Part shown: piece by piece, positions 24,001 to 27,000 of the stretch
How positions within the stretch are numbered: the first letter of the stretch is position 1
Layout of the letters: each line of letters begins with the position of its first letter
IMG/VR virus record: IMGVR_UViG_2671180740_000012
Length of the DNA stretch: 40,166 nt
Source: a virus
Lineage: Duplodnaviria > Heunggongvirae > Uroviricota > Caudoviricetes
Strand: one strand, 5' to 3'
Program-made: the position numbers

Positions 24001-27000
24001 ACGAAAACCGTCCATAAAACCTCTTCCTTTTTAATGAAAGATAAAAGAAAAGTCTCTATATCCTTTGAATTGTCTTTGGGAATAACTGTAATAAATGAAG
24101 TCCATTTTTCCAACTTTTTACTTTTTATCTGTTTGGCCTCCTTAGGTAGAAAAATTTTAGCATTTGATTCACGTTCCAGTCGGTCTAATAATTGTTTGGC
24201 ATATATATCAACAGGAACACTTATGTCACTTGCTTTATGACGTAATTCAATAGTTGGTGTATACTCGTTCGAAAAATAGAAAACACCATCACTGGGTGAT
24301 GTTATCAGAGTCTTTTCTAAATATGTGTATTTGTATGTTATTGGATTAAACCAATAACAGTACCATTCTGGCTTTAATTGCCCGCTATAAGATGTGTTAT
24401 TATTGTGAACCTTACACACAGGATAAATGTTTTCTATATCAGTCCACTTACTTTTATCCTCTTTTTTTTGTGTGTCTATGACGTTTGAGGAGTGTTTTTG
24501 GTTGAACACTTGAATATTTAAAAAAACTAAAAGTATGTTTCCGATAATAGATGCAATAAGCATTTTCTTCAGTTTTGAGTTATCCATATGCATCCCCTTC
24601 ATTGTGGACAATTACTCTTTGTCATAATTATAACTAAGTCATTATATTTCGTGTTTATTATGTTATAATGATATTTGAATGTATAATTATACTCCTGCAT
24701 CATTTTACACTCGACAGAATTTAATTTTTTTTGTATTTCTAGGCTCATTAAGTTTTTAATCTCTTCACCATCAAAAAATGGCGACATATCTTCATTAATC
24801 CCATAAATATTATAGTAATGATTAAGTGTATTTCCTTCTACGGTTGCAGCAATCCATGTAGTATAATCATCTACTTTAATAGGGAATTTTTTCTTGGATA
24901 GTTCATTTTTTAAGTATGAGGCAATTTTATCTGCATCTTCTTTGTTTGATAAAATATCATCAATTTTATTATCACCGAACTCAGTTGCAATTATCTTTAC
25001 AAAGATCAGCAGAATAATAAACATTAATGCTGCTCCTGTTTTTTTTATTGCTCCTAATATTTTGTTTCCTGTCATCTTGCAAATCTAACATAAAATTTAA
25101 TGAGTCTTATTAATAAATTTAATTTCTTATGAGTTGTCAACCTTCCATCAAGCAAACCGTGATCTAACAGCATGACTGTCTGCTTGATATGTGTTGTCGT
25201 CAACACAGTACAGTCCTTGAATACATATAACAAATTTGTTATGTTGATACCTATGAACTACACTATCGAATACTACAGTGAAGAGGTCCGGCTGGAAGTC
25301 GATCAGCTTCCATTGAGTATGCGTGTCCGATACAAACATCTCATTGAACGTATGAAGGTATACGGCAGCAATCTCGGAGAACCTCATACCAGCGCCTTTG
25401 GTGATGGGCTTTTCGAACTCAGAATTAAAGGCAACGATGGGATTGCACGTGTTTTTTACTGCACTCTGACAGGGAAACGCATCATTATGCTGCATAGTTT
25501 CATTAAGAAAACGCAGAAAACACCGCCAGCCGAACGCAAAAAAGCTGAAGCCAGAATGAAGGAGGTTAAGCATGACTGGTAAACGCATTACACCTACCAT
25601 GACACACGACGAAATGGCAGCCAAATGGATGGAGGATCCGGCTTTCAAAGCAGAATACGACGCCATCGCCGACGAATTCGCACTACTTGATGAAATGCTG
25701 GCAGCACGAAAAGAAGCAGGCTTAACCCAGGCTGAAGTTGCTGAACGTATGGGAACAAAAGCGACTGCGATCACCAGAATGGAAAGCAATCTTGCATCAG
25801 GTATAAGCGGCCCATCATTTGCCACACTGAAAAAATTCGCCCGTGCTACAGGGAAAAAACTCCAGATCCGCTTCGTTTAACTCTCCACTACCGCGCCGTC
25901 ATTCTGGCGGCGCTTTACCCCAGAGAAATATCAATCACCGGATTGCCACATCCCACTCCGGATCCTGCCATCTCAAATCCGGTGAATCATTTCTCGCCGG
26001 AATAACCATTACGTCCTTTTCCCTCCGCTCCCTTTCTATCGCCATCACAGCCAATGCTGCAACCATGATGTATTTTTGTTCGTCGGTTCCTGTTTCATAA
26101 CGACGCATGAGGGTAAACTCGGGGCGATCAGTAACCTCAATGATTTCGTTAATTTCTTTAATTTCGAGAGGAATATCCATGAGTTTAGTCTCCTTTGACA
26201 TTACATGCCCACACTGTTTAAAAGAGCGAGCTGTTATTGAGGCATTTGCCGAAAAACAAATTGAAAAAACACCTCTTTTTAACGTCGCTTTTGTATGCAG
26301 AAGTTGTCATCGAGGAGGTGTTGCTATTGTTGAAATCCCATCAGACCACTATCACGGCCCCATGGCGGAAAGCCAGAAAAAAGACCTCGATATTCTGATT
26401 TCAGGAAATAGCCAGTACCGTTTCCGCAAGATCTATCCTGCGGTCAAAAAAATTACCGCACCAGAATATACGCCCCCGGTTGCAGACCGTACTTTTGTTG
26501 AGGCAAAAGAGGATTTACAGAGGAGGCGGTACGACACAGTGGTAATTCTTTGTCGCAGAGTCCTCGATATCTCCACGAAAAAACTGCTCGGCGATGAAGC
26601 AGGAAAAGAATCGCTGTCGCAACGTATTCAGATGATTTACAAAAAAGGGCTGATCACTGAACAGATGAAGGAATGGGCTCATATTGTACGAATTGATGCC
26701 AATAAAGCAGTTCATACAGATGAAGTTTTCACACCAATTAAGGCAAGCCAGATCCTGAGTTTTACCGAAATGTTTTTAGTCTACGCCTTCACTCTGCCTG
26801 CAATGGTGGCAGCCAGACGTGAACAAAAAAGATCAGATTCAGCCTCTATATGAATCACTTTTCTGAACACGTAAGCCCCAGTCATTCACGACGGGGAGAA
26901 CATCAATCCCTCTGCACTCCCCCGCCAGAATGCCAGCACACGCTGCATCGTTTCGCTGTTACGGCACTCGCGACAAATTATGTTGTAGCGTCTGTCGTAG

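Follow-up and report, generated by a model that had tools for sequence, protein, structure and literature searches.

A zinc-ribbon DUF4145 gene of a Shiga toxin-converting phage is a candidate RAZR-like RNase and overlaps head-to-head with a conserved small gene

RAZR (ring-activated zinc-finger RNase; PDB 9y9c), as PD-T7-4 has been renamed, joins an N-terminal Cys4 zinc finger to a C-terminal DUF4145/HEPN RNase with catalytic residues R146 and H154, and defence is lost when either of these is changed to alanine (Zhang et al., Nature 2026; PMC13017515). Alone, the protein is inactive (PMC13017515) and not toxic (PMC13434031). Around rings of phage portal or Gp77 (~170 Å) it assembles into a 24-mer ring, and the assembled enzyme cleaves single-stranded RNA non-specifically and aborts the infection (PMC13017515). 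The zinc finger is both the determinant of specificity and the most variable part; the triggers are portal rings and a putative ring-forming recombinase, and RAZR has been described as a single-gene ring sensor that stays quiet since the host makes no such rings (PMC13017515). A gene for a 224-aa protein with an N-terminal zinc ribbon (ZnR) followed by DUF4145 lies in a 40,166-nucleotide stretch of Caudoviricetes DNA (IMG/VR record IMGVR_UViG_2671180740_000012; the whole of this stretch is the window referred to below). This ZnR-DUF4145 gene is cargo of a temperate Shiga toxin (Stx) phage, its product is probably a RAZR-like effector that acts as a single polypeptide in abortive infection, and its start codon overlaps that of a conserved small gene on the opposite strand (Table 1). 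The original prediction, a candidate abortive-infection gene of ApeA type, was right as to kind and wrong as to family: by analogy, the proposed role is backed by RAZR/PD-T7-4, a characterised relative of the same architecture (PMC13017515).

The sole Pfam match of the 224-aa protein is DUF4145 (PF13643; residues 118 to 196, E=9.7e-9), with 35.6 bits against a gathering score of 23.1, so the lack of any DUF4145/HEPN match, which, together with the lack of a defence phenotype, had been named in advance as the outcome that would count against the assignment, did not occur. The two strings on which that assignment had been based, RRVLDISTKKLLGDEAG and AHIVRIDANKAVH, are present in the product. 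In an alignment of 31 family sequences, whose relatives share 35-70% identity, DUF4145 is matched by every member and Pfam HEPN (PF05168) by 17. The CxxC...CxxC ribbon consists of C10, C13, C40 and C43, all invariant, as are R171 and H179 of the R...H motif. DUF4145/HEPN proteins have the motif R-x(4-6)-H; here both residues are present with a spacing of x7, as in RAZR. Other invariant positions are P87, P95, P99, the pair C125-R126, a VRIDxNxAVH string and the helix FTExFLxYxFTLPxMV near the C-terminus. The prolines P87, A94-P95 and P99 mark the linker that precedes the helical domain. Conservation is uneven, with a majority fraction of 0.57 in the ribbon, 0.34 in the insert that follows it and 0.75 in the HEPN domain; outside its cysteines the ribbon is variable, and more so than the HEPN domain. 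The family profile gave only weak matches to RPB9 zinc ribbons (E=0.25).

An AlphaFold2 model (mean pLDDT 90.1, pTM 0.78) consists of a beta-ribbon (residues 4-52, with strands at 4-6, 20-27, 33-40 and 46-52), a helix-plus-strand insert and a helical domain. The top Foldseek matches, with weak E-values, were the HEPN toxins 7AE6, 7AE8 and 5YEP, which are the structures used for superposition in the RAZR paper (PMC13017515), and a second fold search returned matches that include Csm6, AbiA, LsoA, AbiV and prophage HepS. The predicted structure supports a HEPN alpha-helical fold, and the zinc-ribbon plus DUF4145/HEPN architecture and the R...H motif are confirmed. Locus L003 (protein P0002) carries at the same site an allele that is 70% identical to that of L001. 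The differences lie mostly in residues 61-120 (20-55% identity) and the last 24 residues are identical, a pattern which points to mosaic allele exchange or to diversifying selection that acts on the insert, on the linker and on the first HEPN helix.

Remote homology to RAZR was detected at several levels. The best PADLOC family is PD-T7-4 (E=0.0014, 16.1 bits, HEPN and linker region only), and 15 of the 31 relatives match it at E<=0.01, the best at 2.8e-7. A single-sequence phmmer search of the PDB found nothing at E<=10, and RAZR was reached by the family profile only: chain OA of 9y9c (24 chains, deposited as 'DUF4145 domain-containing protein') was matched weakly (E=0.086) over the linker and HEPN region, with RiDsngavH placed over RIVGNQAVH. 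For direct comparison the RAZR-Ec sequence was pieced together from two database fragments, P0132 (N-terminus) and P0104 (C-terminus), and the result fits the published numbering (AGN at 68-70, R146/H154). BLASTP against this sequence gave 27% identity over 109 residues, again in the linker and HEPN region, and hhalign gave E=3.7e-5 (probability 71%, 93 columns). R171 and H179 align with R146 and H154 of RAZR (RIDANKAVH/RIVGNQAVH) and the linker aligns with RAZR residues 62-79. It is concluded from these alignments that the protein has an architecture of the RAZR kind and a homologous effector domain, in a clade of its own. The clade is large: in an exhaustive profile search E<=1e-30 was reached by at least 210 clusters (50% identity), almost all of full-length proteins of 200-230 aa, and E<=1e-10 by 1413 clusters.

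The ApeA-type reading, which has in its favour the HEPN superfamily and the logic of single-gene defence and nothing else, is extremely improbable. No Pfam HEPN_Apea or PADLOC ApeA model matched the 224-aa protein at E<=0.1 or the 31 family members at E<=0.01. A census of HEPN proteins treats DUF4145 and 'Apea' as separate families, gives ApeA a beta-rich N-terminal domain of ~300 aa and lists 'Zinc Ribbon' among the fusions of DUF4145 (PMC3710099). In the 224-aa protein ApeA-NTD1 is absent and only ~95 residues (the 52-residue ribbon, the insert and the linker) precede the HEPN domain, too few for a domain of that size. The missing profile matches and the size of the ApeA N-terminal domain refute family membership. 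ApeA (Gao et al. 2020) is alike in being a single-protein HEPN abortive-infection effector; it differs in its HEPN family and in its large beta-rich N-terminal domain.

The gene is an already known, annotated DUF4145 gene of Stx phages. The plus-strand ORF at 26107-26853 exists and would encode 248 aa if read from the ATG at 26107. The true start is ATG 26179-26181, as originally predicted, because 30 of 30 aligned homologues begin there (reading MG/MS...), a Shine-Dalgarno (SD)-like sequence stands upstream and the RefSeq coding sequence (675 nt) is identical. RefSeq names it gp20 'DNA binding protein' in Shigella phage POCJ13 and 'DUF4145 domain-containing protein' (WP_000060692.1) in E. coli chromosomes; it is present in 36 of 5426 complete E. 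coli genomes. The label 'DNA binding protein' is shared by phrog_1305 and by gp20 of NC_025434, and zinc ribbons often bind nucleic acids, so a DNA-binding or regulatory phage protein was considered. This is very unlikely, as no experimental basis for the name was found, a HEPN fold that includes an invariant R-x7-H takes up more than half of the protein, and the gene occurs as antisense cargo in varying slots of different phages, unlike a core regulator.

On the other strand a divergent ORF of 88 aa had been described as starting at the same place. The ORF exists, but the start of its 88-aa form is ATG 26201-26199, and ATG 26180-26178 is the eighth codon, which gives 81 aa; the 81-aa start is used by every distant homologue and by RefSeq. 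As originally described, the two start codons overlap, sharing 2 nt in CATG. It had been suspected that one of the two genes was mis-called. Both are real, and the overlap is conserved. The SD-like GAGAGG of the ZnR-DUF4145 gene lies within codons 3-5 of the small ORF, and purine-rich SD-like motifs are found at the equivalent place in other loci. The SD motif of the small ORF is likewise conserved elsewhere (GTGAGGA/AAGGAG), so that the SD-like motif of each gene lies in the first codons of the other.

A Paraburkholderia homologue has a 60-aa ORF at the equivalent position that is 36% identical to the 81-aa protein, and 95 loci were therefore collected via the ZnR-DUF4145 protein and dereplicated at 90% identity to 46 clusters. 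In 28 of these a divergent ORF of 54-131 aa begins at the identical CATG; in one further cluster the small ORF has a different start, one has a truncated copy, and about 16 have no small ORF. Counted by lack of an intact overlapping small ORF the number is 17 of 46, among them L022, in which it is present by hidden Markov model (HMM), and L050, which has the truncated copy. When viral contigs were searched with the small protein alone, 31 loci were recovered and 30 had the ZnR-DUF4145 gene in the same geometry (one as a pseudogene). The geometry ranges over Enterobacterales, Photorhabdus, Zoogloeaceae and Paraburkholderia, with both proteins down to ~35% identity. It is clear that its recurrence is far beyond chance.

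The small protein has a conserved core (..EI...L.SxDRPEFTLMQRYE....DQK..FV.ALIGKLIE.DR.L) in which the ratio of nonsynonymous to synonymous divergence (dN/dS) is 0.03-0.44; this is purifying selection and shows that a real protein is encoded. AlphaFold2 predicts three helices that form a core (residues 5-55), followed by a disordered tail, and neither sequence nor fold searches found an informative relative of it. The literature retrieved, which was not searched specifically for this gene, makes no mention of it. In L001 and L003 the small ORFs differ at 3 of 81 residues (96% identical), with no synonymous changes in the first 55 codons, and dS is 0 for the small ORF against 0.74 for the ZnR-DUF4145 gene. 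Near-identical small ORFs also stand beside ZnR-DUF4145 alleles that are ~50% identical or less (for example, nonsynonymous diversity, pN, of 0.008 against 0.24-0.29). The junction is thus a recombination breakpoint and the proteins do not co-diverge.

This sharp breakpoint suits the explanation that the small ORF has no functional tie to its neighbour, being an ordinary early-operon gene at a recombination hotspot, with CATG as a mere trace left when the two spread together as one cassette. In keeping with it, the small ORF often has its stop coupled to the gene that follows in the operon, and it persists beside other cargo. Among complete E. coli genomes it is found in 48, of which 36 have the ZnR-DUF4145 gene and 12 (the phiSTEC1589 type) have a 166-aa minus-strand ORF in its place; L147 is a further case. 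However, the exact 2-nt geometry and the embedded SD motifs are kept across phage backbones despite protein identity of ~35%, and a search with the small ORF alone recovers the adjoining gene in 30 of 31 loci. Absence of a functional tie is therefore possible but rather doubtful.

The replacement genes themselves were also inspected. In phage phiSTEC1589-Stx1c (L012, 3106-3606, minus strand) the 166-aa protein in the ZnR-DUF4145 slot belongs to no Pfam family, and in a Photorhabdus-like phage (L147, 856-2408) the gene is replaced by those for a 347-aa and then a 169-aa protein with hydrophobic segments. Such replacement cargo beside the small ORF may consist of alternative defence genes.

A toxin-antitoxin (TA) or addiction module, in which a HEPN toxin and an 81-aa antitoxin stabilise the prophage rather than sense phages, would account for the two genes being a conserved unit, and among solved folds the nearest are HEPN toxins that have antitoxins of their own. 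The region also collects such modules, as the separate TA pair beside the two genes shows. Nevertheless, this explanation is improbable. The genes are divergent and not co-transcribed, they do not co-diverge, the ZnR-DUF4145 gene is intact in about 16 of 46 clusters that have no small ORF, and RAZR, the nearest characterised relative, is non-toxic on its own (PMC13434031). As the small ORF is missing from a third of the clusters, it is not an obligatory antitoxin. An obligate type II pair was rejected outright on the divergent arrangement and on the co-occurrence data, the small ORF being alone in the 12 E. coli genomes mentioned.

Two Stx1-converting lambdoid phages match the segment 25100-27400: Shigella phage POCJ13 (NC_025434.1) at 100% identity and phage 75/02 Stx at 99.9%. 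The Shiga toxin A subunit gene is itself in the window (18370-19317, minus strand, ~7 kb from the ZnR-DUF4145 gene), which confirms that the window is from an Stx-converting phage. The early-right operon runs on the minus strand through cII, an O-like gene, a DnaC-like gene, DUF1627 and DUF977; there follow the ZnR-DUF4145 gene (plus), the 81-aa ORF (minus), a TA pair (plus), the nin genes, Q and stx. The ZnR-DUF4145 gene therefore stands at the junction of the replication genes and the nin region, antisense to the operon. A plus-strand gene amid minus-strand genes had been taken as a sign of independent cargo, a reading that the arrangement here and in relatives supports. In all gene-called contexts the gene is opposite in strand to the flanking phage genes, and a crude ORF call gave the antisense pattern in most of the 46 clusters. 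Relatives occupy the replication/nin junction in Atlantibacter and Yersinia prophages and other slots elsewhere: beside xis/int (Enterobacter), beside the small terminase (Citrobacter) and in the early region of a Paraburkholderia prophage.

Table 1. Features of the ZnR-DUF4145 locus and other genes of the window discussed in the text (aa, amino acids)
Feature	Position	Strand	Remarks
ZnR-DUF4145 (HEPN) protein gene, 224 aa	26179..26853	+	POCJ13 gp20; WP_000060692.1
SD-like GAGAGG of ZnR-DUF4145 gene	26166..26171	+	7 nt upstream of ATG
Cys4 zinc ribbon, N-terminal, residues 1-52	26179..26334	+	C10/C13 26206-26217; C40/C43 26296-26307
Hypervariable insert of one helix and one strand (residues 53-86), then P-rich linker (87-99)	26335..26475	+	
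HEPN/DUF4145 helical domain, residues 100-212	26476..26814	+	Includes C-terminal helix FTExFLxYxFTLPxMV
Predicted catalytic motif R171-IDANKAV-H179 (R-x7-H)	26689..26715	+	Invariant, 31 sequences
Terminator-like hairpin, then T-run (CTGCTTCATCGCCGAGCAG TTTTTT)	26584-26602	-	Inside ZnR-DUF4145 coding region
CATG, 2-nt head-to-head start codon overlap	26178..26181		No intergenic DNA between genes
Small ORF, 81 aa, phrog_8371	25935..26180	-	RefSeq-annotated; homologues in divergent loci
SD AAGGAG of small ORF	26190..26195	-	9 nt before ATG; within ZnR-DUF4145 codons 4-6
Hairpin, GC-rich, 9-bp stem	25893..25913		Between stops of HTH antitoxin gene and small ORF
Gp49/HigB-like RelE/ParE-family toxin and HTH_3 antitoxin	25319-25582, 25572-25880	+	Pfam Gp49 E=3.4e-25
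P22-type portal	6867-9011	-	Pfam E=2.9e-131
RecT-family recombinase	36980-37765	+	

The TA pair adjoins the small ORF, just upstream, and in related Stx phages this slot is occupied by other TA pairs (HigB-like PF05015 with HTH; ParD with HigA; TumE with an HVO_A0114-type HTH), which marks it as an exchangeable antisense cargo site. Between the pair and the small ORF is the hairpin at 25893-25913 (-21.5 kcal/mol over a 71-nt stretch, z = -4.75), a possible terminator or insulator. Given the strength of this hairpin, it is doubtful that the ZnR-DUF4145 gene is co-transcribed with the plus-strand TA pair that lies upstream. No hairpin separates the stop of the ZnR-DUF4145 gene from the convergent DUF977 gene. 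The minus-strand hairpin and T-run at 26584-26602 could halt early-operon transcripts that are not antiterminated ahead of the small ORF, and may be there by chance, since a scan for such terminator-like sites gave 5 observed against 2.5 expected. Further away, at 23916-25075 (minus strand), are two very AT-rich ORFs (231 and 158 aa; GC 0.27-0.34 against ~0.5 in the flanks), at least one of which has an N-terminal hydrophobic segment; they belong to phrog_21161 and phrog_19308, families with no assigned function, and look like cargo of recent acquisition.

If the protein works as RAZR does, the zinc ribbon would be a variable sensor and the DUF4145/HEPN domain an RNase effector with R171-x7-H179 as its active site. 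The lysogen would make the protein from its own plus-strand transcript, and it would remain inactive until a superinfecting phage supplied an assembly to which the zinc ribbon binds. Binding would bring the HEPN domains into an active arrangement, and the predicted enzyme would then cleave RNA non-specifically, stop translation and abort the infection. Expression in the lysogen is an assumption, as no consensus sigma-70 promoter was found. A weak site, TTGATC-N16-TAxATT, recurs at -76 in five loci and was rejected as too limited to be called a promoter.

The phage encodes a P22-type portal and RecT, which are of the kinds that trigger RAZR, so a RAZR-like sensor would risk firing on induction. 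Both are possible self-triggers, judged by protein kind, RecT on condition that it forms rings. The small ORF is read with the early operon and the ZnR-DUF4145 gene is antisense to it, hence lytic transcription of the prophage would carry polymerase through the whole ZnR-DUF4145 gene and yield the small protein. Antisense transcription may lower the amount of RNase during the phage's own lytic growth, and, more speculatively, the small protein may neutralise it, as a lytic-phase off-switch. Since the start codons abut, the leader of each mRNA is complementary to the 5' end of the other gene. Taken together these points suggest, very tentatively, a two-gene head-to-head 'self-safe' immunity cassette of temperate phages, with the RNase alone made in the lysogen, as a guard against superinfection, and antisense RNA plus a small-protein antidote on induction. 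The 5' ends of the two mRNAs would then be complementary across both ribosome-binding sites, the three-helix protein would neutralise RNase already made, and the phage's own portal (and RecT, if ring-forming) would trigger no suicide. Such a cassette is unlikely on present evidence.

Several observations weigh against a RAZR-like effector with a dedicated small partner. Homology to RAZR is remote and confined to the linker and HEPN region; residues 1-80 could not be aligned with the RAZR zinc domain by BLASTP, HMM or hhalign, and an insertion of ~29 residues follows the second CxxC of the 224-aa protein. The oligomerisation interface of RAZR consists of V21, D179, D180 and R184 (PMC13017515). 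No counterpart of D179/D180/R184 is visible here, the alignments ending before that helix, and the conserved helix FTExFLxYxFTLPxMV has no acidic pair followed by Arg. The RAZR structure 9y9c was not among the matches of either fold search, and the R171-H179 loop is the one poorly modelled part of the protein (pLDDT ~50 at residues 171-180). Two promoter scans found no consensus sigma-70 site upstream of the gene. About 16 of 46 clusters lack the small ORF, which in turn persists in some phages without the ZnR-DUF4145 gene; as each occurs alone, the partnership is not obligatory. The literature searched yielded no experiment on this clade. DS-38 (HEP2, WP_001313577.1) is a validated E. coli defence protein with HEPN and a zinc finger (DefensePredictor; PMC13092281), of which only the HEPN domain aligns with PD-T7-4. 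Identity with it was ruled out on its description (366 aa, another locus).

The RAZR-like reading matters because the clade is a large, uncharacterised sister to RAZR with the same architecture, and its annotated loci lie inside temperate phages, including Shiga toxin phages, which make such rings. Standard defence finders would barely flag the gene (PADLOC E=0.0014) and phage pipelines call it 'DNA binding protein'. Should it prove to be a defence gene, Stx prophages would gain a superinfection-exclusion function and new zinc-ribbon specificities would become available, while the partner and the antisense placement would suggest a testable way in which a prophage keeps from setting off its own abortive-infection system. 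Were the self-safe cassette to prove true, it would be a built-in antidote to the self-triggering faced by any phage-borne sensor of portal or recombinase rings.

DUF4145 HEPN domains have been put to similar use in other contexts. BxaP (BREX-associated; PMC10799925) and Ishtar1 (anti-plasmid; bioRxiv 10.64898/2026.07.06.735840) have the domain at the N-terminus, joined to unrelated domains and without a zinc ribbon, and fusions to type I restriction-modification components likewise use it as an effector. The HEPN-MNT toxins (7AE6/7AE8, 5YEP) differ in having a co-transcribed MNT antitoxin that AMPylates the toxin, no zinc ribbon, and Rx4-6H rather than Rx7H. RAZR is the closest characterised relative. 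The two proteins are alike in length (~210-225 aa) and in layout, from an N-terminal Cys4 ribbon with CPHC as its first knuckle through a proline-rich linker to a C-terminal DUF4145/HEPN domain with R-x7-H. Mobile elements carry both, and in each of them variability is greatest in the sensor domain and conservation greatest in the HEPN domain.

Database homologues of canonical RAZR (P0084-P0203; loci L109-L114) are mostly annotated at 146-170 aa, with a start at a Met inside the protein or immediately ahead of the second CxxC, and thus without the first zinc knuckle; these are either widespread start mis-calls or common truncated forms without the zinc finger. In the loci examined, RAZR-type genes lie directly downstream of a tyrosine integrase, co-oriented and without a partner, and the original screen likewise placed them by an integrase (bioRxiv 10.1101/2022.05.12.491691). 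In contrast, genes of the present clade are antisense in prophage operons and usually have the head-to-head small ORF, which none of the six canonical RAZR-type loci examined has. The best description of the 224-aa protein is a predicted zinc-ribbon HEPN RNase that represents a divergent form of the RAZR type and is borne by prophages.

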